Shown: positions 4,574 to 63,411, counted from the first letter of the stretch. The stretch: 64,000 nucleotides of DNA from Moniliella sp. 'wahieum' (GCA_003971905.1 RSEE01000002.1:434001-498000); one strand, 5' to 3'. The notes: generated by a model from the sequence alone, not told the origin. Numbers and translations: made by a program.

Positions 4574-6372
4574 TCTTTTTTCCAACGTAGTGGCTTATGC
4601 TTTTTTGAGCAAAATGAACTTGCAGTGAACAGTGAGAATTGGGGGAGTGACATCACTGAGAAGTCCAGTATTGGTACTGGACAAGTTTGAAGCTTGAAGG
4701 TTGAAGCTTCTTGAGCTAGCTTCTAGGACACGATACATCTCCCAGGCACGTATGGAAGGAAGCACACGCCACAGGCACAGGCACACAGGCACGTAGGTAT
4801 GATGCATGATGCATGACGCATCGTGCCTGGGGCCTGGTGTGCCATCGATGCATGATGCCTGGCAGCCACCAATATAAACGGTCAGCTGTGGGATCGAGAT
4901 GAGCTGGAGTATATGTATCGCATGCCTCTCGTAGGATTCGCCGTCGTACGCGCTACATACGCATCTGTCTTGGGTGGTGCCAGTGGTGGTGAATATAATA
5001 TTGAATGGGGGCAGGCAACGTAGTCAACTTCAACGTCCACAGTCAACTAGCCAACGTTCAACGTTCAACTCGGTACTCAGATCGATCAGGCAGCCAAATG
5101 CACAATGCATAGCGCCACCATCGTTTTCCCAGCAGCTCGGACCGCTGGGGCCTGCTAGGGCCCACCCCCACCCTGACCCCGACCGAACTTACACCCCCCT
5201 CCCCTAAACGTACCTTACGCCATTGTCAGCGCATCCTGATGCGTCTCCGCGTCCGCGCGTCCCTACCCTTTTTTGTCCCAGGCCCACTCACAGCCATCCG
5301 CCATTGTATTTTTACTACCGCCATGCATGCATCAGCCCAGACGGTCCTAATATATCTGTGTGGAGGGGGGTGGTAAATGAGACTAAAAGGCTGTGGGAGG
5401 CGTGAAGCGTGAAGCTTGAAGCTTGAAGCTAGCTGGTCGGATCGTCACTCGCCAAAACATGCGTTATTTTGCCGCCGTCCAAGACACTGACTATATAGCC
5501 ATAACAGTTGACTTTATTGTGAAAGTGTGGAGTCGTCCTGCTATGATATGCTACACCTCCGCCAGCTCCACCAGGCTTCTTTGCTCAGGAGATCTGGGTG
5601 CTTTTTTGCTCTGAGATCTGAGGTTGGCTAGATTGATTATCGAGACAGTGAGCCGTGACGTGAGCGTGTCAGCATAGCCAAAATCATGCCAAGCTATAGT
5701 AGTACGAAGGTGGGTGACGTATATGGACGTAAGGCTGCTTTCGCGAGAGATACGGCGAGAGATGTGCAAACCAAGGCGACATATCAGCGAACGACGCGCA
5801 TCCACCGTCTTCAGCCTATGAGGGCGAGGGAGAGAAGGTGAGTAACATGCAACATGGAACATGAAACGTGTATGGCCACAGCGGGGTAACCCGTAACCGT
5901 CGGTAACACGGCTGTGGGAGGGCGAGTACGAAAGCGGGCAAAACGATTGTTTCACAGTAGTGTGCCGAAAGGCCGTCTGCGAGTACCACTTATACCACAG
6001 CTACTAATAAAAACATGTGACTAGGACGACCTGATGGATGGTTACTAGGTTACTAGGGTACTAGACTAAAACGTACCGAATGAAGTCGATGCTCATCAAT
6101 GGGCAAAGACGAGGGACCGAGGGACTACTGACGTGCAGGTGAGTGTGCGATGGGCTGGCTAATGCATCCGTGGTGGATGGGATCGGGCGGAGGGAACGGG
6201 GACGATTATCATTCGACCATCGATCATTGACCACATACCGCAATGCAGTTACTATGGTTGAGGTGGGAGCTGGTGGGAGTTTGTGGAGTCGCTGGGAGCT
6301 GCCAGCTTTGTAAGTACACTTTATAAGTAGTACTTACTGGAAGTCTGAATTTCTGCCGACATCGGGCGGGTT

Positions 6373-6414
6373 CGGGTAGCTCGGGTAGCTCGGGTAGCTC
6401 GGGTGGCTCGGGTG
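6373..6414. repeat. 9-bp tandem repeat (CGGGTAGCT)n
   Basis: cgggtagct x3, then degenerate cgggtggct and cgggtg. Confidence 0.75.
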
Positions 6415-7123
6415 GGTCGCCAAGTGTAGCATGTAGGCAGATACTGCATCAAGCTTCAAGCTTCAAGGCAGTAGGTATTACCAGTTGCCCACACCCATTC
6501 TTCTGGATTGTCAGCGCGGTTGAGAGGCTCTGAGGCATCCCTGATGTGCATGTGAGGCCGACCTGAGGACAGCACCCTGCTGCACCCTGCAGCACCCAGC
6601 CAGCTGAGTTGACGCTCAGGGCATGGCTTTTGCGCCGATGGTCGAAATGATGAACGAAACGTACGTTGAAACGTTGAACGTCCATGTTGAACTTCAAGGG
6701 TTGCGGCCTCAGAGGCCTGAGGCCCTGAGGATAAATTACGAGGAAGGAGGTGCCAGGTAGGTACCACCAGGTACTAGGTGACTGGGTATACTACGTACTC
6801 TTCCGGTCCTAGGTCTAGCTGGGGAGCTGTGGCCACCGTTGTGGCGGTGGCCCCCAGTCCCCAGCGCTCAGCCGCTCAGCTCAGGCTCAGTGGCTAGTGG
6901 CTAGTGGCGCCGCCTGCTGGAGCGGAGGTGGTGAGCCGCTCAGGCTGAGCGCGGATCTTCACACCGCCCTGGTGCCTGAGGCTCAGGACTGAGGTTCGGC
7001 GCTTGGGAATGCTCCACTGGGCCGCCTGAGGCTCAGGGCTCAGCCTGAGCAGAAGGCTAGCGCACCCGCAGCGCCTGCCCGGCCGAAGAGAAGAAGTGGG
7101 GCCATGTTGAGTCGCGACGGTGG

Positions 7124-7187
7124 AGCTTGAGCTTGAAGCTTGAAGCTAGCTTGAAGCTTGAAGCTTGAACTGAACGTTCTGACGTTG
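7124..7187. repeat. (AAGCTTG)n palindromic-heptamer array grading into AACGTT-type units
   Basis: agcttgagcttgaagcttgaagctagcttgaagcttgaagcttgaactgaacgttctgacgttg read directly. Confidence 0.85.
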
Positions 7188-7857
7188 TGATGTGGAGAAC
7201 GTTGGGCAAAAAGCTTCCCGCGTCGATGAAACGATCGAGTAACTAACTAGTAACGCGCATAATGCGTAACGCTGGAAAGTTGCCGTGTTGATGCGTTGAC
7301 GCTCTGCCAGCTCTCGACAAGCCAGGTTGGTGCTGGAGAAAAAGCAAAGACCCACGTCTAAGGAAGCTAGATGGCTGATGCATGATGCATGATGCGTGAC
7401 GGTGACGGTGACGACCTAGCAATGTCAATGTCAGGCCAGCTAGGCGCTCGCTTGGCGGGGCTCAATTCCCAGCATCCTCACCCAGTACCTTACTTAGCCT
7501 GGCCGTAGCAGCTGTGCCATCTGCCCGAGCAGACGGATGGTCGATGCGTGATCGATGACCATCGATCACACATCCGCTGCTTCCACCACCCGGACGTGGC
7601 CGACGCGGGTCCAACCACCAATGGCCAACCGCCACCTGTCGATCCTTGCCGGACTGGGGGCCTCTGTTTCGGAAAATGTCGCTCATCCACTTGCTGACGT
7701 CCAACTGCTCCTTCCTTGCACAGCAGCAACTCTGCCACGGCTGCCGCAGCAGGCCAGTCCACCCGTCCTAAGGTCTAAGGCCCAATCCCACTCCACCGAC
7801 TGCTCTTTCTGCCCTTTCTTTGTTACCCTCTTCCAACCCTTCCTCCTCCTCCCCCGC

Positions 7858-9068: not shown

Positions 9069-9426
9069 CATGCCCCCCCCCTCCCCCCCACCGCCCTCAT
9101 CGACCATTGGGCTTCCCTTGGACCGCTGAGAAATGAGAGAAGACTCTCGGGTCTCGATTGGAGATTCGATTGGAGATTTTCGCTTTTTGATTACGACTGA
9201 CACGTTGCAAGCTTCAAGCTTCATGCTTCATGCACATGCCTCCTGCACCCATGCATTCCCCTTGACGAGGGAGAGATGTCTCCCTCAACGATTGTACGGA
9301 CAATGCTATATCCATGCACCTGCCCCGAACAAGCGTGTCGTAGCATGATAGGTGTGGGCGTGTGTCTTGTCAAGCTTCAAGTGCTGGGGCTGGTGCGGCT
9401 TGCAGCTTGCACGCTTGTCAAAAGCG

Positions 9427-9461
9427 TCAAGCTTCAAGCTTCAAGCTTCAAGCTTCAAGCT
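9427..9461. repeat. (TCAAGCT)5 perfect heptamer array (AAGCTT + C)
   Basis: Five perfect consecutive units counted in the sequence. Confidence 0.9.
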
Positions 9462-10511
9462 CCAGTTGCGGCTTTCACGACGTGGCGTGCGTCGAGGGCA
9501 GCACATACTTGACGTTTCAAGCTTCCAAAAGCTTCAGCTTCACCGGCGCTACCCGCCAGGGTTCCATTTACAGTGAATGCAGGCAATACGTCCACGTCAA
9601 GAGCTTCAAGGCTTTCCACATCACGTTTGTCAACAGGTGATCTGTGATCTGGATCCTGCGTTCGCCCTTCAGCTTCCGACTTGAGATGCTTCAGACAGGC
9701 TGACGCCTTGGGCACATGCCCGACCCTTACTTACTACTCCACACGGGCTCCCAGATCCCAGATGCCACCCTGCTCGATCATTGATCGTCCGGCTGTCTGC
9801 CGCAGTGACTAGTGGGACCATTCGTCACTGTGATGTGACACGTGACGCGTCACCCGCTCGGAGCCAGCTGGGCCAGCGGCTCCCTCAGCCGCTGAGCTGC
9901 TGGAAAAACGAAGAAAATAAAAGCGCCGATGCAGCTAGCAGCCTCCAAGCTCCAAGCTTCAGGCAGGGCGGCAGGGCGGCAGTGACAGGTGGCTGCCCCT
10001 GCGCGGGGGGGGGGCAGTCCGCAGCAGTGCGCCAGTCTGGGCTGCTCGGCCCGCACAGGGGCGGTGTGGATGCGAGTGGCGATCAGGCGCGCAGGGCCAG
10101 TGCCGGCTGCGCGTGGGCCACGAACTGCCCCCTGCGCTGCGTTCCTCCAGCGCGTCAGCGCTTGTGCGCTTGTGCGCTTGTGCGCTTGTGCTCGTGCATC
10201 TGCATGCTGTCAGCTGTCACACATGTCAATGTCACCGTGGCTAGTGACACGTCACGCGTCACGCGTCGTGCGGCTGCCAGCACGCAGCCCAGGGCAGGCG
10301 GATAGAGCGTTGGTACGTTGTACGTTGGGCGGCAGCCGGCGGTGCGGCCGGCGGTGCGCGCTGGGCCACGCAGCACCGCAGCAGTGCATCCACGGGAGGC
10401 AGCACCCATTCGCACGCCCTTTGCGCATTCCTCCTCCGCCCCCCACGTGCTCCCCGCTGGCCGCCCTCCTCCCCTCCCTCCCCTCCATCTCCATCTCCAC
10501 CCCCACCCTGC

Positions 10512-13500: not shown

Positions 13501-13976
13501 CTCAGTGGGCTTTGTCCCCATCCCCATCCCCAGCCCCGGCCCCGGTGGACCCGTGTGTCGTGTCTGCCGCGTCTGCCCCGCCAGCCCCACGTGCCCCATC
13601 TACCCCACCTGCGCCACCTGCGCCACCTGCTCCGCCAATCCCGTTCTCCCCCCCCGCGCCGTCTGCCGCGTTCACGCCGCTCACGCCGGCTACGCCGTTG
13701 ACCCCGTCGGATCCGTTTGCGCGTGCGTCGATGGAGGGGGAGGTGGAGGAGGTGAGGGGTACGAGTCGAGTGCTGCGCTGGAAGGCTTGATGGATGCCTT
13801 GGTGAATGGGTTGGATGATGGTGAGGAGGATGGGGAAGGCGAAGGCGAAGGCGAAGGCGAGGAAGAGGACGAGTTGGGTGTCGATCTGGCAGAGTCGGAT
13901 GCTGAGATTCGTAGAGTCACAGCTCGCTTAGCTGCTCATACCAATACTCACACCCACACTACTACTACTTACACGA

Positions 13977-14007
<31 letters not shown>

Positions 14008-17781: not shown

Positions 17782-17827
17782 GACCTACGGTGGCGCCGGC
17801 GCCTCCGCCTACACAGGCGTTTAGTCA

Positions 17828-19583: not shown

Positions 19584-19620
19584 TTGCCCTGTGGGGGTGA
19601 AGGGTGTGTGGATCCTGCTG

Positions 19621-27724: not shown

Positions 27725-28271
27725 CGTGCATCGTTGCAAATGACTGTCGTTTCAGTTCGGGGCATCTGTAAGTAGCTAAGTGGATTTCGCACTTTACCAC
27801 CCCCATCCCCCACTTGGTCGGGCTCGGGTTGGTGGTGGGTCTCCCTATCGATTCTGTTAATATTCCTTCAAGTTGGCCTTTGTCCTCCCTCCCCGTTCCT
27901 CTCCTTTTCGCCTGCTTTCTGTACAGATTTCGATTCGTCTTGTCGTGTGTACAAGTTTCGATCCATCTTGTCGTGTACTCTGACAGCCTCTGTGTACTAT
28001 ATGCTTCCCTAATGCCTACCCTCCCAAGCCCATCTCCATCTGATGGAGCTCCTTTGTATTGCGTCGTATGGGCTGCGGTGCAGCTACCACTGCAGCCGCG
28101 ATCCCACACTTGGTACCTTGCTCCTCACTCTAATTCACCTTCAATTGACTTGGCCCCTTCCGCCCTCACATGTGACAGGGGGGTATCGTAGAGTACAGCT
28201 AGCCACACCGGGACAGCCGCGCATCCACCATGGCTCAGCGCTCAACGCTCGTCATGCGTCAGCACGTACGC

Positions 28272-31200
28272 TCAATGCGCAGCCGACGCGGCCGTGCCAG
28301 GCGGGGCAAAGCCACCAATCAGCGTGACAATAGCAGCTGACCCAGGTGCGTCGGTGTCTCGCGCAGGTAAGGTGGGTGGTGATGTAGGTAGGCGCGGCGG
28401 GTGCTTCGGGCTTGTTGGGGCCGTGCGGCGAAGAGGACGGGAAGCGAGGCCCAAGGCTTCGGTAAAGGCCGGATCGTAGTTATCGTGAACGGTAGAGGGG
28501 CCGGGCACGCCCGCCAGGGGATTTTTGTTTGCCGCTGTTGGGCTCGTTGCGTCAGTGGCGTTGGAGTTGACGTTGAAGTTGATGTTGGAGTTGACGGTGA
28601 CGTTCACGTCGCCCTTGCCGCCAGCATCGACTGGCACCGACGGCACGTACATGTATTCCCCCGAGTAGGTCCCGGCAGTAGACTCGGTCATCATGGACCA
28701 CGACCGACCCCCCCTGGCAGACGCGGAACGCCGTACCCGTTCCCATACTCATACCCATACCCATACCCAACCCCACCCACCGTCCTGGCACTGGGACTGG
28801 GGCAGCGCAAGCGACTGGGTCCCCAGCCCAGTCCAGGCCGACGTGGCAGCGATGGAGCGCGCGGGTACGTGGGCAAACGCACAGCCGCACCCGGGCATGC
28901 CGTCCGGCATACGGGAGTGACGGTGGGTGGCAACGCAGGAAAAGGCTGGACTGATGCCATTGCCCCCGATCCCGCCTTGGATCGTGGCGTCTCTGTTGCA
29001 AGAAGCAGGGAGAGGGGTACAGTATCAGTGCTAGTAGAACGACGACGAGTGGGATAGTGGGCCAGGGATTGAGCCCGAGCCCGAGACCGAGTGCGAGCGG
29101 GAGCAGGAGCAGGAGCAAGAGCAGCAACTGGAGGTGCGCCGCTGCCTCTGGCTCAGTTTCGAGGGTGCGAATGGGATCCGTTTCGCTCGCTTTCCAGTTC
29201 GGCGCACCACCTGGGCTCCGGTCCCACGGGGGGGGGACGCGTGCGGGGGGCTGCTACCCACCGAGGCCAGCGAGGTGACCGACGGTTCCAATAAGCCTGC
29301 TGACACAGCGCTCCCATTTCCATTTCCGCTCCCGCATCCGCACCCGCTTTCGTTCGATCCCCCTCCTGCACGCCAGGAGGGAACCCAAGATCGCCACCAG
29401 CCCGCGATGGCAGAGGGAAGAGGCAGCGAAGTGGGATATGGATGGGGACTGTCGTTGCCTGCGCCGGGACCCAGACCATCGTTCCGGGGGGGACAAGGTG
29501 CTGGGCCGAGCTAGGGCAGGCCAAGGTGTTTCGTTGAGCTTGTCGCAACGTCTCGAGAGCCGACATGGATTGTCGGGTCCCGGACGGAGGGGGAAGCAGG
29601 ACAAGGGTAGGAATGGCCATGGCTACCGATCTTGAGGGACTGTCCTGTGTCCCGTCGTCGCTGGGTTCGGAACAGAAGTCCAAGGGACACGGGAAACGAG
29701 TGGGTAGAGGCAGAGCGCGAAGAAGGGGGACATTCAAGTAGCTGTCACTGCGTCTCGACCCGCGGTGCCGCGCGCCATGTCGTAAGGGTAGCCCGTGGTC
29801 CAGCGACCCAGCTCGCGCGGCGAGGTGAGGGCTGGACACGTTCGAGCATGTAGAGTGGCAAGTGGATGAGGTGGGCGAAACAGGGGCACCAAGCCACAAC
29901 ATTTTGTCTTCCGTACTATCCGTCGCACGCGACGACGGTGATATGGCTCGTTCTCCCACCGTCCGTGTTACCGCAGGAAGAGAAAGGCGGGCCAAGGAGA
30001 GGGAAAGGGAACCAACCGGATAGCTTGGACGTCGCGGTTGCCTTGTCCGTCGCTGGGCCTGGCTGAGCGTCAGAGAGGGAGCAACGAGCGTACGGGAGAA
30101 CGAGGAGGCAGAGGCAGTAGACAAGCTGGTGCGGGGCGGCACCACCGGCGCACTGCCCGGCACCCATTCCGGCGCCATTAAATGCGAAAGCGACCGTGCG
30201 CGGCTCGAGTTGCGCATCTGGTGCCCGGGTCGATGGAAACGTGGAGAGGGGAGCAGGTGATGCGGCACGACCGGTCAATGCCGGCTGCCGAGACAGGAGG
30301 GGATGAAGCACCGTCGTTGTGTTGGGCGCAGCATGATCGAAGTAGTCGGTTGCCCCCTGGGCAGGGTAGACCCCCACAGAGGAAAGGTAGACTGGCCTGA
30401 CTTGGTTTGTCGTCGCCCGCGTCGAGGTGGGATGGGGAGTGCGGGGGGCAACCAGTGGCGGAGGCGGTGGGGCCCGGATCCGACAGGAGAGAAAGCGAGC
30501 GGAGTAAGGCTCTTCGCCGCTCGCCCTCCTTGTGCCCTTCGGACGCAGACTGGGACTGGCGCCCACGCTGCCTTGCTGATACAAGCGCGTCCTGCCCACC
30601 GTACACGGCGTGGCCAGGGACGCCCGCGTGCGCCGCAACGCGCGAGCCATGCAATCCAGCCGAGGTAGGACCCGCATACGCCCAACTCCACGCGGCTGGG
30701 GTGGTAGCCGGGTAGCCCGAGTAGCTGTAGGCGTGGCTGCGGCCGGGGGGGACGCGGCTCGTTGATAGGCCGAGAGGCATGGGAGACGGTCGAAGCGGTG
30801 GCCAGCGCCCCGGCCACAGGCGTCGGAGCCCCGGAGTACAGCCCCCATACCGGCCTATGCTCTGTGCCGACCCGCGCACATCCTCCTCCTGGCATGCCGC
30901 CGAGCAGTAAAGCACCGCCTTGTGGGACTGCGCCGCGGCTCGCTTCATGTCCTGCCCCACTGTTTTGCCGCGCGAGGAATGCGATACGGAGCCCCCACAT
31001 CCGGTGCCCCCTGGCGTGGTGGGGGACATGTGGTTTGGGGTGACGGGAGCACCATTGGCCAGAACACCGGTGCCCGCGGGGATAGCACATTCGCACACAC
31101 TGCAAATCGTCTGGTTCCACACGTCGTAGCCATCGAGTTCGATCGCAGCTAACGCCTCGTCTTCCGATGAGGAAGAAGAGTGGTGTGCCCGTGTCAGACT

Positions 31201-31416
31201 CGGCATCGGCATCAGCATCGGCATCGCATGGGGAAAATGGGCTGGGTCGTCCGTGGCAGGGGCCGGCTGAGGTGGGAGGAAGCGCGGCGGCGGCGGCGAC
31301 GGGCTTCGTGCGCGTCCTGGCGGCGGAGCTTCTCCTTAAATTGGGCGCGGAGCTGGGTGAGATCGGGACGGCTGGTAGCGGCGGCGGTGCCAGCGCGTGG
31401 GCGGGGGTCGGGCCAT
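28272..31416 (-). CDS. Large low-complexity protein with an N-terminal Ecl1/2/3-type zinc motif; boundaries approximate, may be more than one gene
   Basis: WNQTICSVCECAIP ... LYCSAACQEED (CxxC...YCSxxC) in ORF 30178-31224. Ser/Pro/Arg-rich frames continue down to the stop at 28272. Confidence 0.55.
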
Positions 31417-36343: not shown

Positions 36344-36364
36344 ACGTTAAACGTTAAACGTTAA
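36344..36364. repeat. (ACGTTAA)3 heptamer array (AACGTT + A)
   Basis: Three perfect units immediately upstream of the oxidase start. Confidence 0.75.
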
Positions 36365-38778
36365 CGTGCGGGGCGGGAGCTGGCGGCTGCCCAGGAGCCA
36401 GACACCGTCGCAACATGGTGCCCCCTTACCGACCGGTTGGTTTCCCGCAACGAGTGCAACGCTTAACGCGTAACGGTTGCTAGGAATTAATAATTCGGCC
36501 TCGGGAGATACCGCGCGGAGATCAGAGAATGCCGAGCGGTCGCTCACACCAGCGTCTTGGGCCACCCTTTCCGCCCGTTCCCGCACTCTCGGCTAGCGGA
36601 AGCGATTGGAACTATTCCACATCTGCATCATGCATCAGTACTGCGACTCAGTACTCAATCTGAGTCCACCACACTCTGCCTGCTGGGTAGTACCGACAAC
36701 CGACAACCGGATCGAGCCATGTGCTTGAAGAACCATATGGGGTCTTCTACGTGAACCGGTGAACGTGAACCCCCGAAGTAACGAGAAGCCAATGCGAAGG
36801 GTGCTTACGCTTTAGGTTCCCGTTTTGTCCCCGGTCGTTCTTGCTTCGTGTCAACTTCATTTCCAACAACATCTGTGGCTCTCGTGATTTCCTTGATGGA
36901 CCGACTGTTCGGTATCGGGGATACTTCGGGCTTGTCGGCCATCATCCACCTGGCTAAGCTGCCCCTCCTACGATGTGGGCCTCGTAGGTTGAAGCTCAAA
37001 GTGTCCATCGTTCATCGTTCAGGTCAAACCGCGTTCAACACAGGGGGGTATAACCGGTAATTGGCCACTTTTTCAAAAGTCGATTACGATAGCTCCCGTC
37101 GGTACGGGGACTGGGAGAGAGCTGGTCAAATGGTCAAACGTATTGGGGGAGAAAAGAGCTGTGGCAAACCAAGTGTCATCAGATCTCAGAGATCTCAGAG
37201 TCGATGTCAGTACTTGAGACTCAAGTCTGAGATCTGACTAGCTGGCCTTTCTTAGTATAATCAGGTGTGTCGGAGTTACTAGAGTTACCGTATGCGTTAC
37301 TGGGAGGGGTATCGATTTTTTGCACGATTGTCGATTACCGGCCTTACCAGTTATCGATTACCGAGATCTAGGTAGCACTTAGTACTGCTTAATAGTTATC
37401 TCGTAATCGCGTAATCGATAATCGAGGGTGCAGGGTGTATAGTTGCGCCCAGATCTGTGTGTGCTAGCATTGCATGAGGCCATGAGGCACACCACCGCTG
37501 GCACACCGTGCGAAACGTCACCCGCGTCACTAGTCACTAATTATACACTGGTACTCAGATACTCAGTATTCAGTAAGATATAGTCACTCAGGACAGCTTA
37601 ATGTCGTCTCAGGCCGGTCTCAGGAGTCTCACTACCATGAAAGTCACACGCACACAAGGGGAAAAGATAGGAAAAGACAGGAAAAGACATCAAAAAGCTT
37701 GGCAAAACAGCCCGCTCCAAAGCAACTAACTAAGCGCTTAAGCTTCCGTAAGTAGCGCTATACAAGCGTTATCTGTAGTGTTATTGGACATTGAACGTTA
37801 GAAACGTGCTATAAACATGCAAATGACGTTAGGCACGTTTTGGTGATACGTTTTTGTCGAGCTGAGCGCGTCAACGCGTCAAACGTCAGACTCAGTCTGT
37901 CTGAGTAACTCAGTCAAACGTCGAAGCTTGAAGCTTAAAGCTTAAAGTCCTACCACTGTCCTACCACCAAAACAGCTAAAGACAAAGCCGGCATGACATG
38001 CATGACATGCATGACTCTTGGCGTTCACGTTCATTAAGCTGTACCAGCTGCACCCCGCATTCAAAGCCCTTGTCTAATTTGGCGTGGGATGCTCAGCAGC
38101 GCTCAGCCGCTCAGGCTGAGCCGTTGACCAGATCTGAGAAAGATGGGAGTGAGCCTATTGGTATTCTTAAGAGGACGAGGATGAGAATGATTAATGATGG
38201 GCGGCTGCTTCGTAATACCAAAAAGAACCTCTTCAAGCTCAGCCTCTGAGCCTCACGGCTGAACGCAATCGCCCCCCTCCAGTTTCCTGTTCGGTACATT
38301 CCTTTCTATCTTCCTTCTGGCAAGGCAGAGTATTCTCTTCTCTAGCCTTTCTTCTGTATAATTCTCCAGGCGCAATGTGCAATACACCATTGCAAGAACG
38401 CCATCAACTGCCTACTCTCTCTGCTCTTTCGTCTACAGCGTACTTGTAGGCCTCCCAACTATCACCTAACATTTGAAAGGTGATATATGATACGAGGTGG
38501 TTTCCTGCCTCAGGCTGAGGTCCTCAGCCTGAGCGCCCGCAGCGCACCGGCCTCAGCGCCCTCAGCGCCTCAGCCCCCAAGCAGCTCAGTCAGTAAAGTT
38601 GAAGCTCTGCCATAGACAAAGAAACGCAGCTGCGCCTAAACCGACCTGCTCATCTGATGTGGGCTACGTGTTGGCCCCCAGAAGCCCAAGGCCCAAACCT
38701 GTTTAGATTGTCCAGGTATCGTGTATCTCCTGTTTGCGAAGTAGCCCATTTTGCTGATGACGCGGTGACGCTTTGCGA

Positions 38779-38844
38779 AGTAACTAGTAACTAATAGTAA
38801 CTAGGTAACTAGGTAACTAGTAACCGGTAACCTAACCAGTAACC
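38779..38844. repeat. GTAAC-centred degenerate array (ACTAGT + A, ACCGGT + A units)
   Basis: agtaactagtaactaatagtaactaggtaactaggtaactagtaaccggtaacctaaccagtaacc read directly. Confidence 0.8.
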
Positions 38845-40031
38845 TGTTTTGCTGGTGACGACGTGACGCGGTGACGCGGACGACGAGATCTTTCCTATGC
38901 TTTTGTTTATCAAACTGAAGGCACCAGTACGCAGTGCGCGGGATTTCACATGTGATTCGTGATGTTGATACACGAAGATGCACCAACTCTGAGCCTGAGC
39001 CCTGAGGTCCTCACGCGTTACGCCTCAGGGCCGGAGCCTGCCTGAGCGTTCAGGCTGAGCGGCTATAAGCTGCTATAGGGGAGCATATCTGATCCTAATG
39101 CGCTCATGCGTTCATGGGAATGGTAGTCGAGCTTTGAGATACACCAAGTTCTCTCAGATCTCAGGAATATAATACATGTTCTTCGTTCCAAATAATATCA
39201 AGGAGAGATGAGATCACCAGAACTACATCAGGCGATCCAGAACTCGAGTCCACGTCGAGATCCCTGCCCGCCTGGCATTTTGGATGTTGGATGCTGGACG
39301 GTGGTCAATATTCAATGGACGGGTGGACGGTTGGATGGACGGTTGGATGGATGGACGGATGCACAAGAGAAGGTACTAGTAGAAACCAAGGCGGGTGTGG
39401 TGTGAGCACGTGACCGAGTGACCCTAGTAGTCCCGATATGGCATTCTGTGTGATTCTCAGATTCTGAGATTCTGAGATTCTGAGAATGGGTGTGGGACGT
39501 AGCGATGATCATCGATCATTGATTAATGATCGATGATCGATGATCTGAGAGATCTGCGATGGTCGATGGTCGATGGATGTCAATGAGATCCGAGATGGAA
39601 AAGCGCCGAAACCTCGTAGGCGGTGCGCCAGACAGCAGAAAATGGATTTTCGATGTTGTCGATGATCAACACAAGTAGGAGACCAGGCATCGAGGCTGCC
39701 GATAGCTTCATCGATCAACCATCGATGGCCAGGTTAGTAACAGTTTAGCGTTTGAAATTGAACCTGGTTAGCTTGGGCTGGTCACCGGTCAGGCCGGTCA
39801 CCGGTCATCGAGGTCATCGTAATTCGCTCTGACCTCCAAGCATTGTGAGTAAAATTTAAAATCAACCAACCCTGGTTTGAAATTTGATCGATGGTCCCGC
39901 CCGCCGAGTCGTGCCAAGAAAACATCGTCCAATTAAATTAAACCAACCAAATCGTCTCGAGAACAAGTTAAAGTTTAGAGGGTGGTTTGGGGTACAAGGG
40001 TGTTTTTTCCCTTTCTTTGGGACACACGCTA

Positions 40032-40057
40032 TTACGCGTTACGCGTTACGCGTTACG
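40032..40057. repeat. (TTACGCG)n heptamer array (ACGCGT + T)
   Basis: About 3.7 perfect units; a near-identical array occurs at 63058-63083. Confidence 0.8.
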
Positions 40058-42532
40058 GGATACGGATATGCAAAGGGGGGGAAGGACTTGGCGTGGATTG
40101 AGAAGAACCGCACCAGGTGCACCACGCAAAATCAATAATCAACCGTCGGGAAAACGGAAGGGAGAAAGGGAGAGGTACAAGATTACTAGGTGGTGAGAAA
40201 ACCCACTAGCGCTCTGAGATCTGAAGATAACGCTCACTGACTGAGGGGTTCAGGCGGAGCGCTCGCTCCACGTGGGCCCTAAGCCTTAAGGCGGCCTAAG
40301 GCCCGCGATAATCGATAAACGTTGAACTCCGCTGCTATACCAGAGCGCGGCCTGAACGCCTTGAAGCTTGAAGCTTGACAGGTACCACAGGCATGGCCCG
40401 ACAGGATGACAGGAAAGGGGGGCGCGGCGGTCAGAAGAGCGCGGCGCTTGGAAAGCCAACGGTTACCACAGCGCCAGAAGCCAGAAGCAGAAGCCACACA
40501 TGCGCGATGGGGGCGCTGCTATAGAAGCCACGCGAGGAACGCGTGCTAAGCGCTAAGCCTTAGCGCTCAGGCTGGCCCAGGCTGTCAGCGCCAGCGCTGT
40601 AGGTGCTAATGACACACCGAACCAACTATAATCAGCCTGGTCGCTAGTCACTAGTCACTAGTTGCCAGTCTCTTCAAGCTTCAAGCTTCAAGCTTCAGAC
40701 CTTCATATCTCAGAAGTAGAAACGGTGCGTACCAGCTCGGCGCGGCTGGGGCTGCCGGCGGAGCGGCGGCGGGATTGTTTTGATTGCAGGCGGTTTGCTT
40801 TGATAGGGGAACTATGTCAGCGCCATGTCAGTTACGAGCAGCGGTGGAAGGCTGGGCACTTGTCGGGGGTGGTGGTGAGTACTGCCTACTGTTGAATGTT
40901 TGGCTCTGCATTTTGTCACTCACGTAGAACATGGGTGCAGGGGAAACGCGGGTAATTTGAGACCAGCCCTTGCATAGCCCAAATCCTCCCGCCGTGCGCC
41001 GCCGCGCCTCAGGGGGGGCTGGGGTGTCCTGCATCCTGCTTCCTGGCACGTCCTAACCGGTGACTGGTGAGTCAGCACCCCGCGTTCGGGGGGGCGCAGG
41101 GCACAGGGCGCGTCAGAATGCAATGAGGCTGGCACCGTGCCTGTCTTCCGGAAGCGCATATATGGCACATGATGTGCACGATGCATGATGCACGAAGCAT
41201 GAGTGTCTGACGGCTGGGGGGCTGACAGTGGCCTAGTGACCGAACGCGGAACCCTCAACCCATGTTGGATTTGGGGTGCGTGTGCGCGGATGCGGGAATG
41301 GTTCAAGATGCAGCACCAGGCGGCAGCTGAGCGGCGGAAGGGCCCTGGTGCGCGTGCCTGCCGAGCCAGGCGAGAGAGGAGCCAGCGGCGGCCTGGCCGC
41401 GCAAGCGCAAGCGCGCGTGGCTCGGCTGGACCCGTGCCTGCTGTCAACACACTGCTACCACCGCAGCCACGCGCGGCAGACCAATCCAAACGCTGTATCC
41501 ATCATCCATCACGCACCCTCCAACGGTGCCAGAGAAAATTCAATATTGAACGAAGAACGTTCAACTCACGCTTCAAGGGTCCCACGTCGCAAGTCACATG
41601 TTCGGCATCAAGTGTATCACCTGGCCCGCCGAACCATGCTCGAGGAGGAGCAGCCTCCGCTCAGACACTGGCGCTGGGGTACCCCCAGCGCGCACCCCCG
41701 GCTGGTACTGCGCCTGCGCCAAGGCGCCCGGGTAAAGACGGCCGACGCACGGATGAACACGGCGGCAGCGCCTGGTCCTGCGTTGTCAACGGTCAACACG
41801 TTCAACTGCGTACTGAGTACACTGAGCCAGATCGGTGAGCCTGGGATGGGTGACTATCGAGTGCCAGCGCGCTGGGATGGATGGGATGCGAGCCCATCGC
41901 AGGATGCATGACGCAGGACGCATGACATGCGAAACAGCAGGCCGGCGGGGTGCGAGAAGAAATGGGGCGAGAGTGTCGCCGTGCGCGGCGGGGGGCGGGC
42001 GGGGTGCGGGCGGCGGCACGGGGGCAGCGTGCGCGCGTGCGGCTGGGTCGGCCCAGCGGAGCCAGTGTGCCGGCCGGCTGCACCTGCTCGGAGCGCCCCA
42101 GCCCAGCCGCCCGCACGGCGCGGCAGGCCGATCGAACCCAGCGGCCGTAGAGTTCGTCCGCAGACATCGCGGCCGCAAACAACGCGTCGGTGCCTTGCGT
42201 GCCTGCCGCCGCAGCGCGCCACTGTCGCCCTCGGTGCACTGGCCCCCACGCGACCTGGGCAGCGCACATCCATCCTGCCCGACACTGCCCCCCGGCCGCC
42301 CTTGTCGTGCGCGCTGCCTGCCAGGCCAGCATGAACAGGGAACGCTGGCAGGCTTATAAGCGCATCGGTCCGCCAGCTGCCCCTCACATCTGTCCTCCCG
42401 CCCCCCCCACCACCCGACCGCCTCTTCCCCACCAACCGCGCCTGCGCCCCCGCCGCCTGGCCGCGCCCTCCGCCAACCCTTCCGACTTCCCCCCCCTCCC
42501 CCCACCCCCCCCCCTCTTCGGACAATCCGACC

Positions 42533-46273: not shown

Positions 46274-46404
46274 CAGTACTGAACTCTGTACTCAGTACCC
46301 AGTACTCAGTACCCAGTACTCAGTACTCAGTACTCAGTACTCAGTACTCAGTACTCAGTACTCAGTACTCAGTACTCAGTACTCAGTACTCAGTACTCTG
46401 TACG
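46274..46404. repeat. (CAGTACT)n heptamer microsatellite (AGTACT + C)
   Basis: 12 perfect units at 46314-46397, with degenerate cagtacc/ctgtact units on the flanks. Confidence 0.95.
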
Positions 46405-48966
46405 TCTCAGTGTTTTGTTGGTAGTATGGTGTGTCGCCCTGGCGGATTCGGTCGGTGCGTCACCCTGGCTCTCTGTCGGACCATGTTTACCTCAGTGTTG
46501 GTCACCCAGCCACCACAACCACAGCCACAACCACACCGCTTCTCGTTGGATCCGAGTGGGACGTTGGACGACGGCCCGGCGCTGCCGCTCGAAGAGGGTG
46601 GTGGGTGTCACGGGCGGGCGCCGCCAGGGGGGCCGCCCTGGGGATTTTGGGGTACAATCCCTTAGGCGACGGTAGGTCGACTCACGGTAGTTTCGGGCTT
46701 AGGCTGGTTGGTGCGTCCGAGCGGAGCTAGGGACGAGGAGAGGCCTTTGGTGGGGCGGCTGCACGTGTGGCAAGGCTGCGTCTGCACCGGCTTGGGCCGT
46801 AGTAACGTGTCTGAAGCCTCCGGGACTTAGGGACGGGAGGAGGCAGAGGGGGACAAACACTGCCTCAACAGAGACTGGGAATCGCCGCGACCAGAGGAGG
46901 GCTCGCGCGATTGGACTGACGAAGGGGGGGACGAGGTCGGAGGAGAAGTCGGACGCTAACAAGAGAAGCTGCCTGTACTGGATAAATTGGCTGGAAACGG
47001 GCAGGAGTCGGACAGGATAGACGGGAAGGCGAGAGGATGACGAGAAGGACGAGAATGGAAGGTGGGGGAAAAGATCCCCATCAACCAGGGGTACAGGCAG
47101 GATCAAAAGGGAAACGGATACAAGAGGGGGTGTAGAAAGGAAGACATGTCAAAAGCGGGGTTGGTCGCCGCAGGCGCGACCGAGAAAGGAAAAGGAAACG
47201 GGGACGAGGCGGCAGACGCCGCCACGGCATTGGAAGCTCGGTGGCCTTATTTAGGCCGGCCGACGTGGACTTGGGCGGGAGGCGACTGTTGTCGCGCTGA
47301 GCATGGCCCTTCGGCCACGATACTTAATTTAGCCAACCATCATCACACTCGGTTGGCCTGCGGAGCACGCTCTACTGGGCCTGTGCGGAGCAGACGGGCC
47401 TCAGCTTCGGTCGGACCATCTCGTGTCCGCCGCAGCCCGTGACAGTGGGTATCATATATCACCTCGCTCGCACCACTACTGCTCTGCCTTTTTCTTGTGG
47501 TGCCATGCCCTCCTCCGCTAACCCCTACTTACTTTTGGTTTATACTATGTGCACTCGGAGTTGGTTCCACTTCCCCTCCGTTTCTAGTTTCTCTCAAACA
47601 TATCCTAGCAGTAGTATTGAGTGATCTCACAACAGTGATGTGTGTCTTTGGCCTACTGATATGATCCAACCAACGTGTGCCGTTGTTAATCATTGTCCTG
47701 TGCATAGTAGGATGTGCGTATAGGGGCGGGCAACGTTCGTTGGCTCACGCAGGCCTGCCGTTCAATGTTCAACGTTCACGTGTGGTGTTCGTTAAAATTG
47801 ACTACTTCATCGTGGTAAGTAGTCTACATACTATGCGGCCGCGGAATTGCCGCGCTAGAAAACAGAGCCATCGGGCCTTTCGAGTTTGGAGAGAGACCAC
47901 AGTGTCCAAAGCGATGCAAGCCAAGGACTCTCCGCCTTGCAGAGGTGCCTTTGGGTCACCTATTTCACAGACTGAGTAGGGACGGCGGCAGGGTGGCTAC
48001 TAAGTAGGGACGGGAGTGAAGGCTAGTGACCTGCAGTGGCAAAAGCCCGTCTTTCTCTCCACTTCAAGTGTCTTATTTGTTTTGGTCTTTTTTGAGTTCA
48101 GTGCGAGCAGGAGCCTGACGCGGCTGTTTTCAGTGTGTGGGTATCAACTCTCGCTGTGAGCAGTTGTGCTGCCCGTGTTTTGTTTTACGCACAGAAGAGA
48201 TTATGTGTATAGTAGTGTCGTTTCTCAGCAAGGAACGAGCAAAACGGGCGAGGTGGATTCGATGCTTCCGTTGTTGAGTTGGTGAAAAGAACGTGCAGTT
48301 CCTTTCACTGAAGTGTTCTCTCGCTGTCGATGCCACCAGTGCAATCCACAACGCACATGTAATAGTGTGTACGGTTGTCATGGCTCGATGTGCCTCATAT
48401 ACGTATGTCGTGGGTCTCACAAAGGTGGAATAACATGCGTATCCTATCAACTAGAGGGAGGGGGGGCTATACAAAGGATACATCAGTAGGGAAAACGGCC
48501 TATATGTGCACCGTAAACACAACGACACATTATGTCTTGACCACAGAGGACAGAGAGGATTCCTCTGCAAAAAGCACACCAACTCATCAAACATGTCGAC
48601 ACACTGTCTCTCTCCCCCGACAGAGAATGCGGCAAAAGCGTCGTGCACAACACGTACTACTACTATTGTCACTACCATTTGTCCTATCATATAGTGTGAA
48701 GAGAGGAAGAGGACAAGTTCTCCTGTTACGAGGACCCATCCACAAGTCCCCCCTCGCCAGATACGGGTGTGAATGTGTGTTGTGCATTGCCCTCATCATA
48801 ACCGTGGTGTGTATATGCGGCCTGCAATCATATGAACACAACCTGCGTGTCAGTCATTGGTATATTAATGGAAAGGTTGCGTGCCTCCGCCCGCTATCCC
48901 ACTCCACCTATACACTCCCTTGCATTGAGGTGGTGCCGGCATTGTCGGTTTTTACCACACACTAAG

Positions 48967-52188: not shown

Positions 52189-52345
52189 GGTGGCGGTGGC
52201 GGTGGCGGCGGGAGCAAGGAGGAACAGCACACGGGTGGTGGGGAGGAGGATGCGCGCAGAGGAGGAAGCAGAGAGCAGAGAGCAGCCGCAGCCGAGAGCA
52301 GCCAGCAGAGAAAGCCGCCTCCAGAATTGCTTGGCCCGCCCGTGT

Positions 52346-52428
52346 ACGCGTCCCTGGCCCCGGCCGCATGGCGCCAGTGTGCCGGTGGCGACCGCACGGG
52401 GGATGCGCGTCGCGTAGGTCGGCGCGTC
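52346..52428. promoter_or_regulatory. MCB-like (ACGCGT/ACGCG) cluster upstream of RFA1
   Basis: ACGCGT at 52346-52351, tandem CGCGTCGCGT at 52406-52415 and CGCGTC at 52423-52428, 160-240 bp upstream of the RFA1 ATG. RFA1 is a classical MBF target in yeasts. Confidence 0.4.
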
Positions 52429-53197
52429 GGGTTGGTTACCTAAGCACAGCGCGGTCGGGGAAGGACTGGCGAGTGCCGGTGTGAGGCCAGGCGCAGCTGC
52501 GGCACTCGGACTGCATTGCAGCCTCCCGATGCAGATCGCATCCATCGGCGGCTGAATGTTTCAACATCCACCCTCCATGCAGCGTTCAACTGAACGTTCA
52601 ACGAACGTTCAACGATCCTCGATGCTCGGTCACCGGTCACCGGTCATCGACTCTCGCCCTGCGGCGCAGTGCGAGCCAGTCCCCCCCCCTGCGCCCGCCC
52701 CCTCAGCGCCTCAGCGCCCCCTGCCTCCGTCCGCACGCCTCAGCTGAGCACCAAGCACCACACTGGCGGGGTGCGGCCTCCCGTGCTGCGCTGGTGGCCA
52801 ACCAACACTGGATGCGAGGGCACAGCGCCAGCGCGGGCCAGCCGCGGGTGGCCGGCCTGCGGGAGACGCAGCACCGCAGGGCGCCAGTATACGTGGGGCT
52901 GCTCCACCGATCCCCGTGGCCGGCAGCGCGCCTGTGTGGCCCCGTTTGCCGTTTGCAGTGCCGCCGCTTCGATTTCTGTTCTGCGGAGCTCGGCGGCGGC
53001 CAAGGCGGGCGGGATCCAAGCGACGCAGGGTGGGCGGTGCCACGCTCGCCACCCGCAGTCGCCGCTCTCCGCCCCGCTCCCTGCCGTGTCCACCCCCGCC
53101 ACCGCCACTCCGCCAGCCCCCACCTCCCCTCCTCGGCTCCTCGGCTCCTCGGCTCCTCAGCTCCTCCGCCCCTCAGCCCCCCTCCCCCTCCCCCGTC

Positions 53198-59100: not shown

Positions 59101-59338
59101 TCGACCAATCCGTTTGCAGCGCCAGCGGTGCCACTTGCTCCGCGCGACACGGCCAGTCCGTCGGATGCGGAAATCGTGCTGGCGGTGCAGACGTACCTGG
59201 CGCAACAACCTTCTCTGAAACGTCACCAAACGCTCGGCCCGCGAGGCTGTCATGGCTGCCTTCCCCAATGCGCCGACGATCAAAGAGAAGAAGACATTGA
59301 TCAACAAGGCGATCGACGATACACTGCGCGGGCAGTAA
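53198..59338 (+). CDS. Chitin synthase with N-terminal myosin-motor-like domain, cytochrome-b5-like domains and C-terminal DEK_C-like domain (class V/VII); introns ~53919-53983 and ~58219-58271
   Basis: [72 protein letters not shown] and [110 protein letters not shown] at 59336-59338. Confidence 0.95.
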
Positions 59339-60090
59339 ATCTGGTTTCTAGGTTTCGTTTTGCTCAGTCTTCCTGTACGCTCGGGTTCACGTTCACGGGC
59401 CTTTTTTTGAGATATGCATCCTTTCCGTTTTCTCCATGAACCGTATGAGATGCTATCGATCCTCAACGGTTCAACACACACGCGCATTCGCTTTTTAGTC
59501 CCTTCCCCTTCGCCCTCCCCCCCTCCCTTTCCCGCCTGTTCCCCCTTTTCCCACTGCCGCCCTGGATCGAATCGACCTGGTCGACCGGATGGAGGAGAAT
59601 CGCTCTTCTTCCCCCTCAAAAACAATTGTTCTTGGCGCTGTTTCGTCGTTGGCTTTGTTCCCCCTCACATATGCACCCCGTTCTTTTCCTCTGGTTGGCA
59701 CGCCTAGCTCCTAGTCAGGGGTATGTATATGTAGGTTGCATATGCACAGACAAGCACTGCGCAGCGCGATCCCCCGACAGACGAACCAGGTGCATATATC
59801 GTAGGAGAGCAGTACAGATCCAGCACATCGAACTGAATGAGATGCTGATGATGCTGTACCAGTGATGCTAGTGATGAGATGGGGAAAGGTGATTCGTTGC
59901 CATCCGCCTCAAGCTGTCTCCCAAAAAAACATAGGTCGCCTCCGAGCTCGTCAAAAATGCCTTCAAAAAATACAGTCGGCAAGTCCGCCGCCTACACTTT
60001 CGGGGGCTCCACATTATTATAGCAGCGTCAACCTCATTGAGCTGTTACCGGTTACCGCAGCAACAGCTCATCCATCTTGGTGCCCACTGC

Positions 60091-60862
60091 TCAACCTACC
60101 GGCTCTTCCGTAATGACCTCATCCCCGGGTCTCTCCCGAAGCTCCACCTTCACCTGGACGCAAAGCAAGGGCCCAGCCGGATCCACACCCTCTGCTTCAC
60201 CCAGTCCGCCTGCTTCACCCGTACCGTACTCTCCCCCCACCCGAAGTTCCGAGGTGGGTACGACGCATGAGTTCAGCCAAGTCTTCTTCCTCAGAAGGGG
60301 GATAGCCACTCCACTCATCGCTCTGGTCGTGTGGCGACGAGTCACTGTCCCCCTCTAGGATTAGGCCCAAAGCGCCGCCGCTAAGGGCCATGAGATCATA
60401 GCTGTTGCCGAACGAGTCATAGCTCGCGCCATCATCCGGCATAGTAAGGTCCATGGGGAACCCACTTGCCGGAGGGGTGCTTCGATGTAAGAGACACCGC
60501 AGAAGGTACGCTTCTTCATCCGATCCCGGGACATCCGTTACACATCCCTCCTGCCAAATGTAATGCTGGTCCGTAGGAGTAGTAGTAGGCAGCCGGCTAA
60601 CGCCGAGATGACCGCTGTGGTGCTCATCGGTGCCCCAATCGAACGCGTTGGGCAAAGATTCCACCCGTCCTTGATCATGCTCCGCTTCGTCAAGAGGGAG
60701 TAGATGGCTCGTATTCGAACTCGAATGGTAGTAGGGCTCGTCCATAGGCATAGGTGCTCCGTCGGTGCATAGGGCGCTTTCGTCGTGCTGGTGACTCAGC
60801 CCCTCGAAGGGGGTGGACAGTAGCCGAAACGAGTGGCCAGGTTCACGATGCTGGTTCGCCAT
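60091..60862 (-). CDS. Hypothetical acidic orphan protein
   Basis: MANQHREPG... is open for >200 codons (ORF 60215-61018) and probably shifts into the 60091-60345 frame at a G-run. No domain recognised. Confidence 0.35.
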
Positions 60863-63411
60863 GGCGCCAAAAGGGGCAAAAATGGTGAGTTGCTGATGAC
60901 GAGGGAGGAAGTTGGCTTGGGCAGGTAGCGACCAAACTGAAGTTTTATATGCGTCCGCGTATGTTCCAAGAGAGGGGTCGGAGGATGAGATACCCTTTGA
61001 ATACAAGGATGACATCACCAGTATAGGCTATACATGCGCCACAACTGCACCTGTTATCTCGAATAGAGGCACTGTGCTTTGAGAGTGGTTAACTGCCTTG
61101 CTGCTATTACTGATGGAAGACTCCCTGCAACTATGAAGCCCTTTGTTCACCTTTGTTGTATACCCCCCAGAAACACTAGACTTGTGCTCCAAGGTAAGGG
61201 GAAAGTGATGCTGGTGCTCATTTGTGTTGATGTCTATAGATTGCCATAGATAAGCACACACAAATCGTAACAGCTGCACGATGCCGGACACTGTATAACA
61301 CTGCACAAAATACTTTCCCGGGGTGAAGGGCTCTTCTTTGCCTTTGTCTATTTGGTGATGAGCGTTCACCGCACGTGCAATCGATGCAGTCGACACTTTC
61401 AAGCACAGCGAGAGAGGAGAACCAAGGTGTGTCCCTGATATACCGCTATATAGGCCCGTGTGTGCGCACGCCACGCCTTTCGTTTTGATTGCTGTATACT
61501 AACAGTAATACAGATAAGCAGACACAGTTTCTCCACACCGCGCCCTCTTCGTTTTGTAAGACCGTGCTTCTCTCATTCCAAACAACGTGCATCGTTTCTT
61601 CAGGGGAAAGGGCACTTTCACCTCCTATCTTCTTTGAAGCCGTACTGCCTTCGACCATTTATCATTTATCCTCGATATATCTCACACAAAAAAGGCAAGG
61701 TCAGAAAGAGATATAGCGTTGTAGGTCCAATGCATCGAAGAGAACTGATAAGAGGGGGTCCAGTGGCGCTTCTTACGGCAAAATCAATGGGTTTGGGGAG
61801 TGAACCGATGCATACAGGCCGTATACTCAACGCACCAAAAGTCGAACGTACGAAACATAATGAGCCTTGGGGCCATGAGTGCTCGTTATACTGTAACAGT
61901 CGGGGCTAGAGAGAGACAAAGGCCCTGTCAGGGACGGGGTCACTGGCAAGATCCTTCGTAGGAGGACACAAGAGCATGGGGAAGGGAACAGAAGCAAAGG
62001 GGACCGGGAAGAGCGTGATACATGGGATGGAGAATTGGAGATAGGGGGGCGATTAGAGAACTTAGTGAACCAGTGACAATTACTGTTGTCTTCTTTGAAG
62101 ATGTATGTTCTATAGATGGATCTGAGTGTAGCGTAGTAAGTTTTTTCCCCTCTCCTCCCACCATTGAATCTCTTTAGCGTCAATCGAGAAAAACATGCGT
62201 TGAACAACGTTGACGTTGCTATCAATTTCGTGGAAACAATGACCCCGGAGGGTCCTGATATCCTGACGATCCCTCTGGTCCCTTGACCTTAGTGGCGCTT
62301 CCAAGTAACCCCCGCAAGATGAACGGTTCGATTTAGACGTAGCGTTCCCCCTGTCCCAGCCTTAAGCTCTGTCAATGATATGGATCCAAGAGGGGTATAA
62401 TTGATGAAGCATGCGCATCCATCATAATCCGCGTTTATATCAGTGCCCCCTATGTCATATTCCGCGTCGAACAGAAACCACCCGAGTATACATTTCTCAC
62501 AACTGTACTGTGAAAGGGTGGACAGCACCTGAGAACGTATGTGTAGATGTGCCATCCATACATTTCTCTCTTCCCTCGGAGAGTTTGCCCTGCCTTAATA
62601 CAAGAACACATCTGTTATGCCACCAATCCGGTCATAACATGCGCCTCTCTTGTAGTGAAAGCCTTGCTCGAAAAGCGTTTTGCTGGAGAGATCGTCCCTT
62701 GCTTGCACCCCCCACAAGTCTCAGCCTAATCTCGGGACCCAGACCCGATTTACTTCTCATCATGCGTGGAGACCACTATATACGGCGGAGAAACGAAAGG
62801 GAGCCGGTTTCCACGCCCGGCGCGGAAACGCAATGATCATGTGGCTTTAGTACCTCTCTGTGCAATGATGACGAAGAGAGCGAGCGCGCTGCTATACAAA
62901 CGGCACAATTTGGCAAGCCGATTTGGCATAGCCTTGCCTCCATATCTTGTCCGCGAGACGCTTTGGCCATGTAATGTTTTTCTTAACCAGAAGAGAAGTG
63001 GTGACCGCCGGGCACCGCCTCTCTGCCGAGATAATATGCGCAGGTCGGCACGTCAGGTTACGCGTTTCGCGTTACGCGTTACGGGCTGTTGGATATTCAA
63101 AGCTGTTATCCACAGGTCACGGGGACGCTGACGGCTGACGTCACCACATCACCTGCTGCATCACCGGCATCACCGGCGGGGTAGCCGGTAGAGCTTAGAG
63201 AGTAATGGAACTCAGGCCCATCATGCATCATGCATCGTGCATTGTTACCCGGTGGGCACTCCAATCAAATTTCAAACGCAAATGTTTCAAAATGCCAAGC
63301 TTCGAGGTGGCGAGTTGGGCATTCGGAGTGCCACTTAACCGCTCACTGAGTTCTAGTCGATCGATCGAGAGGACTAACAGACTCAAGTTGGGGGAGCCCC
63401 AACGCTGGTCT

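Follow-up and report, generated by a model that had tools for sequence, protein, structure and literature searches.

Flank-copied seven-base repeats in the intergenic DNA of Moniliella sp. 'wahieum' as probable scars of transposon excision

The stretch of DNA analysed here, which we call the window, comprises 64,000 nucleotides of Moniliella sp. 'wahieum' (GCA_003971905.1, RSEE01000002.1:434001-498000; C2:434001-498000 by our contig numbers) from an assembly of 69.5 Mb in 223 contigs. It carries short palindromic heptamer repeats that are real and genome-wide and are not a code. They are probably the healed excision scars of a cut-and-paste DNA transposon that makes a 7-bp target duplication and leaves RAG/Transib-like blunt hairpins on the flanks. 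No published description of such a rule, in which a scar at a TNA triplet copies its own flank, was found in the open literature, subscription papers lying outside the coverage of the search.

An earlier note on this DNA had described many different tandem arrays, each built as an A-NNNN-T hexamer palindrome plus one base. All 22 coordinates that it listed hold the hexamers it named, although as arrays those at 52583-52613 and 6712-6730 are imperfect and those at 38779 and 40545 hold one full hexamer. Its reported excess of A..T palindromes also held. The window contains 59 perfect period-7 runs of at least 14 bp, of which 31 are a hexamer palindrome plus one base, 30 of them A..T and one C..G. 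In a genome sample taken outside the window (60 pieces of 10 kb, 600 kb in all, from about 50 contigs), 139 of 321 perfect period-7 arrays are palindromic, and 133 of these are A..T as against two each for C..G, G..C and T..A. Fourteen of the 16 A..T hexamers are present in this sample, where non-palindromic period-7 arrays are also frequent (182/321) and no A..T excess is seen at periods 5 and 9. The checks that the note had proposed, against shuffled sequence and between intergenic and gene DNA, came out in its favour: the 12-bp core scar defined below occupies 56 loci in the window compared with a mean of 0.23 and a maximum of 2 in 30 local dinucleotide shuffles, and only one of the 56 falls within six gene spans totalling 16.7 kb (five drawn from Pfam matches, the sixth from a DAO match below cut-off). 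Exact scar loci number 283 in the 600 kb, spread over 53 of the 60 pieces, which extrapolates to about 33,000 genome-wide. A single 17-mer occurs 2,280 times in the 69.5-Mb assembly, while its reversed control occurs 0 times.

What is the basic unit of these repeats? The note had taken the array as the basic form; most loci are instead single 12-bp scars with a fixed phase. Each consists of TNAwx, x'w' and a second TNAwx, or the mirror image, where primes denote complements and the palindrome centre falls between x and x'. The geometry was counted in 902 kb, a set that includes flanks of long terminal repeats (LTRs), and hence an intergenic bias, and one 3.8-kb overlap (L096 in L046). By number of TNA triplets there are 472 runs of two, 75 of three, 14 of four and 8 longer. 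Unlike runs with non-palindromic spacers, those with palindromic spacers end 0 bases to the left and 2 to the right of the TNA pair (67) or the mirror of this (53). In TNA-N4-TNA a palindromic spacer is 6.2 times as frequent as expected by chance, while spacers of 2-3 and 5-7 and other symmetric triplets show no excess; an odd-centred spacer of 5 is likewise not enriched (144 vs 115). All 16 wx dinucleotides are found, and N is G or C at 228 of 285 oriented sites. TGA accounts for 246 scars, TCA for 222, TAA for 58 and TTA for 55, and the remaining 60 triplets reach at most 49 each, the highest being shifted readings of the same arrays. The control cores ANT, CNG and GNC give 10, 12 and 14 against 579-581 for TNA. 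A weak side class follows the same rule, five bases plus two, at CCA and TGG (20 and 14 matches in the 600-kb sample), with two exact indels at non-TNA sites in the C17/C62 pair described below; the CCA/TGG matches might be decayed TCA/TGA scars or reflect a looser target.

The ends of the repeated unit can be read directly from the junctions. In the same 902 kb, on both strands, with arrays included and 2 palindromic (P) bases between the copies, a left copy that ends 2 bases past TNA is followed by a right copy that starts 0, 1, 2 or 3 bases before TNA in 915, 72, 61 and 4 cases (ANT control: 12, 2, 5, 0). For a left copy ending 3 bases past TNA, the figures are 24, 1, 2 and 0. Because the counts fall sharply beyond 2 bases on either side of TNA, the duplicated unit is uvTNAwx, exactly 7 bp and symmetric about N. 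We coded each joint by the bases kept of two 4-base overhangs, wxx'w' and v'u'uv. The class (4,0) has 461 members at TNA and 10 at ANT, (4,1) has 63 and 2, and (4,2) has 46 and 5; the mirror classes are equal, at 461/459 when the same events are counted on two strands and 67/53 on one strand. Doubly transversed duplications show no excess in the junction table. In 41 of the 63 (4,1) joints u equals w', compared with a background of 0.235 (P about 2e-11), and in 10 of the 46 (4,2) joints uv equals wx (P about 0.002 against an assumed 0.075). The joints that add 8 or 9 bases thus share microhomology with the P bases of the partner end and with the base that opens the 7-bp copy.

From this geometry we infer the agency of a transposon, the hairpin chemistry, the position of opening and a possible EnSpm/Transib-clade identity, and the following course would produce the scars. 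The transposon would insert into open intergenic DNA at uv-TNA-wx, where N is G or C in most cases, and duplicate 7 bp. On excision, the transposase would close each flank into a blunt hairpin precisely at the junction, as in RAG/Transib-like reactions, and a host nuclease would open each about 2 bases past its tip, leaving uvTNA with the 4-base 3' overhang wxx'w' and TNAwx with the overhang v'u'uv. End joining would mostly retain one overhang whole and lose the other, giving uvTNA-wxx'w'-TNAwx or its mirror, a gain of 7 bp; the rarer +8 and +9 products would keep part of both, often by way of microhomology. Each scar would again hold two targets, so that later visits could add units, same-facing visits yielding pure arrays and opposite-facing ones mixed chains. 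A preference for insertion into open DNA, together with loss from coding sequence, would lead to clustering.

An opposite-facing second event on the original target is predicted to give uvTNA v'u' uvTNA wx x'w' TNAwx. Such double-hit chains with both flanks matching were observed 19 times in exact form, 18 of them distinct, and 0 times for the control cores ANT, CNG and GNC. The ratio of these 18 mixed chains to the 75 pure three-unit runs is 0.24, where re-targeting alone predicts 0.33. Mixed opposite-facing chains cannot be made by slippage, which probably did extend the few long arrays, including the 11-unit array at 46318. Scars also cluster, 149 of 339 lying within 100 bp of another.

The scar loci of the window that bear on these points are as follows; entries carry a strand where one is assigned and are otherwise unstranded.

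4688..4699: single scar, core AGCT, from the core-scar scan
4800..4816: three-TNA array, core TGCA
5056..5069: scar, core ACGT
5410..5428: three-TNA array, core AGCT
6040..6054, plus strand: +8 scar of a minor class that keeps the whole left overhang and v, the joint having u=w' microhomology
6449..6467: three-TNA array, core AGCT
7132..7168: two arrays side by side, core AGCT
7376..7394: three-TNA array, core TGCA
9212..9459: three loci with core AGCT, at 9212, 9370 and a five-TNA array at 9427-9459
10250..10263: scar, core CGCG
28233..32735: six scar loci, at 28233, 32084, 32483, 32594, 32627 and 32724
32627..32647: double-hit chain, two scars that face opposite ways (cores CATG and AGCT) and have one TCA in common, the flanks on both sides matching the prediction
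36346..40697: hot region of 28 exact loci in 4.7 kb, about 8% of bases (hand-summed)
37473..37487, plus strand: minor-class scar (+8), u=w' microhomology
38551..38574, plus strand: stacked +9 and +8 minor-class scars at one site
39803..39818, plus strand: minor-class scar (+9), the 7-bp duplication complete and its copies separated by 2 P bases
40032..40057: four-TNA array, core CGCG
46318..46394: longest array, 11 TCA units, core GTAC
47450..47778: two scars, at 47450 (core TATA) and 47767 (core ACGT)
52628..52646: three-TNA array, core CCGG, between RPA1 and the chitin synthase gene
59861..60056: minor-class +9 scar (59861) and a scar with core CCGG (60045)
63070..63276: scar loci at 63070, 63219 and 63265, and a +9 minor-class scar at 63159-63174

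Empty and filled alleles were observed in a duplicate segment met via the transposase search (C17:518001-608000 and C62:233001-323000; 80,757 aligned bases, 3.2% substitutions), which was scored by local alignments, a global alignment being distorted by large indels. Indels of 7 bp number 34, of 6 bp 24, of 5 bp 16 and of 8 bp 6, with a local peak at 7. After exclusion of seven of the 34 for poor flanks, 27 seven-base indels were scored: the rule at TNA is exact in 10, nine of them at sites with no earlier scar, four fit with one mismatch, two of these weakly, and two are exact at non-TNA sites. Most of the empty alleles (TNAwx) have no pre-existing hairpin. Direction could be read at a site in an older LTR family, picked by hand because one copy carried a scar: 55 of 59 copies are empty, one is filled and three are otherwise different. 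Because 55 of the 59 are empty, the scar at this site is a gain. One copy of a young LTR family (L071) splits an array, and the copies of this family that were scanned are free of scars; therefore either much of the scarring predates the family or LTRs are poor targets.

Is there an element that could have made the scars? A search of 664 kb for inverted ends with 5-10-bp duplications returned LTR-related and array matches alone, nnTNAnn duplications with inverted ends, exact or with one mismatch, were not found in the sampled DNA, and the repeat families with readable ends in it are LTRs. A 241-bp repeat family tried as a foldback element was rejected, being an LTR pair in direct orientation. 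It belongs to a 1.4-kb TRIM-like LTR element with 241-bp direct terminal repeats, whose copies are 97-100% alike (L026:7880-9296, L035:6756-8147 and L049:2847-5657, nested in L049).

Among protein families, a loose first look at the assembly gave no match to PF05699 (hAT dimerisation; two candidates scored, and the control also gave no signal), no candidate for PF13359 (DDE_Tnp_4, Harbinger) and no match to PF13960 (DUF4218). PF02992 (Tnp2) matched at C17 with 52.6 bits, over the cut-off, with a duplicate at C62 and a further match at C34 under the cut-off. These Tnp2/EnSpm-like genes (C17:555900-559300, C62:280800-284600, C34:513200-516800) are broken and end-less. In the assembly they are spread over several frames, and about 460 bp of the C62 copy are absent from C17. 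One-base indels in the C17/C62 alignment number 619 in 81 kb against 2,608 substitutions; the assembly may have many indel errors, so frameshifts in genes are uncertain. Protein searches with three Tnp2-like frames matched just themselves and one duplicate, a longer-protein search from the C-terminal frame of C34 had no matches, and a profile search of solved-structure sequences gave nothing credible. An atlas look-up of the C34 C-terminal frame returned Plavaka, DUF4218 and Tnp2 clusters as minority labels, and a model of one C17 frame (predicted local distance difference test, pLDDT, 69) placed RAG1 and Transib first in fold lists, weakly. The C17/C62 gene adjoins a P-loop gene that, judged by eye, resembles a Rad51 paralogue.

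Several results weigh against the excision of a RAG/Transib-like transposon. Within about 0.9 of the 69.5 Mb no element that combines inverted ends with a uvTNAwx duplication was found, nor were inverted ends, which with CA..TG termini would mark the EnSpm/CACTA, Plavaka and Transib clade, or such a duplication found around the three Tnp2-like genes, and some 33,000 scars without any non-autonomous copies seen would be unusual. The match of the modelled fold to RAG1 is weak (Foldseek E 3.5e-4, TM 0.26; VIA Z 6.2, root-mean-square deviation 7.2 A over 228 residues), and a RAG1-like fold, itself predicted, does not tie the Tnp2-like genes to the scars. At 7 bp the duplication differs from the 2-5 bp given for EnSpm/Transib-clade elements in the portion of PMC12730594 concerned with them, so that the transposon, though it may belong to that clade, does not fit it in duplication length. 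Plain 7-bp duplications without P bases, class (2,2), are not in excess (150 vs 226 in the control), and joints that keep both full overhangs, class (4,4), number 0. Of the 27 seven-base indels, 11 follow no rule at TNA, and ordinary growth of an array accounts for two of the four that fit with one mismatch; these indels may be losses as well as gains, since deletion between the 5-bp repeats gives the same pattern. Only one site, hand-picked, is polarised, and 30 young LTR copies (25.5 kb) contain zero scars or rule-following insertions.

Could another agent have written the same scars? We consider it unlikely that the writer is a host-kept RAG-like (EnSpm/Transib-clade) enzyme, derived from an ex-transposase without ends and still cutting open promoter DNA at nnTNAnn. 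A host-encoded, perhaps domesticated nuclease of this kind would cut uvTNAwx with a 7-base stagger, and filling, hairpin formation, opening and rejoining of the ends would leave the same scars in promoters. The failure to find an element with ends in about 0.9 Mb and the highly stereotyped products speak for it, as do the C17/C62 and C34 Tnp2-like genes, which lack inverted ends and are preceded by promoter-like DNA rich in scars, the C17/C62 gene standing at the same place in two gene sets. Those genes, however, are in multiple frames and the C17 copy is about 460 bp short, albeit in an assembly with many 1-bp indels. A duplication of 7 bp is, moreover, what strand transfer followed by gap filling yields. 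If a host-kept enzyme were at work, promoters would be rewritten by flank-templated 7-base insertions that regenerate their own target, amounting to a self-propagating generator of intergenic sequence that would resemble V(D)J coding joints except in acting across the genome and being inherited. Less probable still is template switching by a polymerase at nicks or lesions near TNA, with a fold-back of 2-3 bases, a return and the re-copying of 4-5 bases. The dominant product does parse as 3 inverted and 4 re-copied bases with T as microhomology, and two exact five-plus-two indels lie at non-TNA sites. Any bNb' triplet should then serve, however, which the 10, 12 and 14 matches at ANT, CNG and GNC contradict; neither the sharp 2-base limit on both sides of TNA nor the P bases from the second end is predicted, and the +8 and +9 classes already strain the idea. 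Fold-back at a pre-existing TNA hairpin, which the earlier note had entertained, is not needed, the empty alleles usually having none.

We give little credence to a selected code, in which proteins would read TNA-N4-TNA or arrays would shape promoter chromatin, a protein reader having been among the note's suggestions. Scars do cluster, and in each of three gene sets they abound upstream of PMA1 (28, 16 and 14 loci). On the other hand, all 16 cores are present and each spacer is dictated by its local flank, direct TNA..TNA pairs outnumber dyad TNA..TN'A pairs by 492 to 54, the PMA1 upstream regions are unaligned bar 43 bp with arrays that differ even in a 93%-identical pair, and a preference for insertion into open DNA with loss from coding sequence accounts for the clustering. 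Some scars may have been secondarily recruited to a function. A stop-codon reading (TGA/TAA in all frames) was rejected, TCA and TTA being equally common per strand and TAG unused (6). Least credible is ordinary microsatellite slippage or a sequencing or assembly artefact. Non-palindromic period-7 arrays are common and the 11-unit array looks slippage-made, yet slippage can make neither the inverted dinucleotide in an empty site nor the 18 mixed chains, as the note had anticipated in holding that it does not predict the constraint. An artefact, for its part, would neither spare genes nor bear point mutations; it would not vary by rule from one duplicate segment to the other, and no LTR (L071) would have inserted into it. 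Of the origins proposed in the note, hairpin-type footprints of transposon excision gained support from the scar geometry and the empty and filled alleles. Its pointer to PIF/Harbinger did not: the 3-bp TWA duplication of those elements is not what is found, the unit being 7 bp with N mostly G or C, and the loose first look for PF13359 gave no candidate.

How does transposon excision at TNA compare with known systems, as these appear in the portions of the literature drawn on here? In RAG/Transib reactions a blunt hairpin forms at the junction, and Artemis opens it 2 bases off. RAG1/Transib coding-end joints share with the proposed mechanism the flank hairpin, opening by a host enzyme and 1-2 P bases at the untrimmed end only; V(D)J joints are diverse, whereas the scars are stereotyped. 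A likeness to the CMCT clade (EnSpm, Plavaka, Transib) is that this assembly contains Tnp2-like genes, one frame of which gives a weakly RAG1-like model. The passages of PMC5499845 on RAG/Transib-type excision describe hairpins on the flanks. In the same source the flank hairpin of Muta1, a MULE, measures 43+43 nt, which fits a cut at the junction, and more than 90% of excisions are precise; Muta1 thus shares the junction-cut flank hairpin and differs in its mostly precise excision.

The footprints of Ac/Ds (hAT) in Candida albicans, S. cerevisiae and plants, in the part of PMC5873905 that treats them, share a target duplication and short P-nucleotide palindromes from flank hairpins, as well as a few dominant products and microhomology at many joints. 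Their palindromes centre on the complement of the bordering base and their unit is 8 bp (PMC5873905), where here the centre lies between two bases and the unit is 7 bp. Because the centre lies between x and x', membership of hAT fails. Here, moreover, one product prevails by about 4 to 1 over all minor classes, and the scars are natural, genome-wide and stacked. Muta1 duplicates 8-9 bp and MULEs 8-10 bp, and the 7-bp unit would argue against a MULE. The hAT7 elements of rust fungi make a 7-bp target duplication in a basidiomycete, in the relevant portion of PMC12730594; hAT geometry misfits even-centred palindromes.

The 10-bp repeats of Ustilago maydis are fixed in sequence; in the scars the core is instead copied from the adjoining flank. 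What they share with the scars, compared by description only, is that they are short intergenic repeats of a smut read as footprints: the portion of PMC4081816 that mentions them calls them numerous and intergenic and suggests that they are transposon footprints, which is the nearest published idea to ours in the literature seen. The consulted text of PMC4824034 gives repeat totals only.

If the scars are those of transposon excision, the repeat grammar can be read as a log of insertion-excision events in the tens of thousands, and the scar spectrum alone would reveal, without experiment, how long the target is, how it is cut, where the hairpin is opened and which products end joining prefers. 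It would predict a transposon lineage that pairs a 7-bp TNA-centred duplication with RAG-like hairpins, an unreported combination, and show that tandem repeats can arise from a beginning other than slippage. The old footprint suggestion for short intergenic smut repeats is now testable by rule, and the duplicate gene sets of this fungus allow scars to be dated. With exact scars at about 8% of bases in hot intergenic stretches, the process may be a main driver of promoter turnover.

The hot region at 36346..40697 lies between a divergent FAD-oxidoreductase-like gene and PMA1, and its 28 scars in 4.7 kb upstream of PMA1 compare with 16 and 14 loci upstream of the duplicate copies. The window's region aligns with the other two over a 43-bp block alone, and within the 93%-identical pair itself several arrays are different. 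The hotspot is conserved and its content is not, as expected for neutral scars in open DNA.

Pfam profile matches in the window mark a WD40 gene, a rabenosyn-like gene, PMA1, RPA1 and a chitin synthase with a myosin motor. The closest named relatives of PMA1 are from Ustilaginomycotina (Tilletiaria 92%, Ustilago 92%, Pseudozyma 91%). RPA1 and chitin synthase each have two extra copies at 75-76% (window 48000-62000 against C8, C23, C32 and C44). At least three gene sets are present in the assembly: that of the window matches the other two at about 76% in coding DNA, and those two are about 93% alike, which suggests a hybrid or polyploid, or a mixed sample. PMA1 (window 42395-45536) has at least 10 further copies at 83-92% identity, about 3-4 per gene set. 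A tRNA-Ser(CGA) gene at 4480-4573 immediately precedes the first scar-rich region, and the 17.6 kb at 10400-28000, GC-rich with many 3n repeats, a single clear Pfam match (rabenosyn) and zero scars, is probably long low-complexity coding sequence.

Outside the scar system, the window holds one further feature:

46606..47444, plus strand: young solo LTR with a 5-bp duplication, scar-free

Its family has at least 40 copies at 91-100%, with 630 candidates in a first look. Pieces of two older repeat families, about 80% identical to many copies, lie at 61891-62056 and 62241-62388. In the sampled DNA, L038:6169-10000 contains long degenerate tandem repeats with periods near 200, 400 and about 60 bp and is probably a repetitive gene of cell-wall type.

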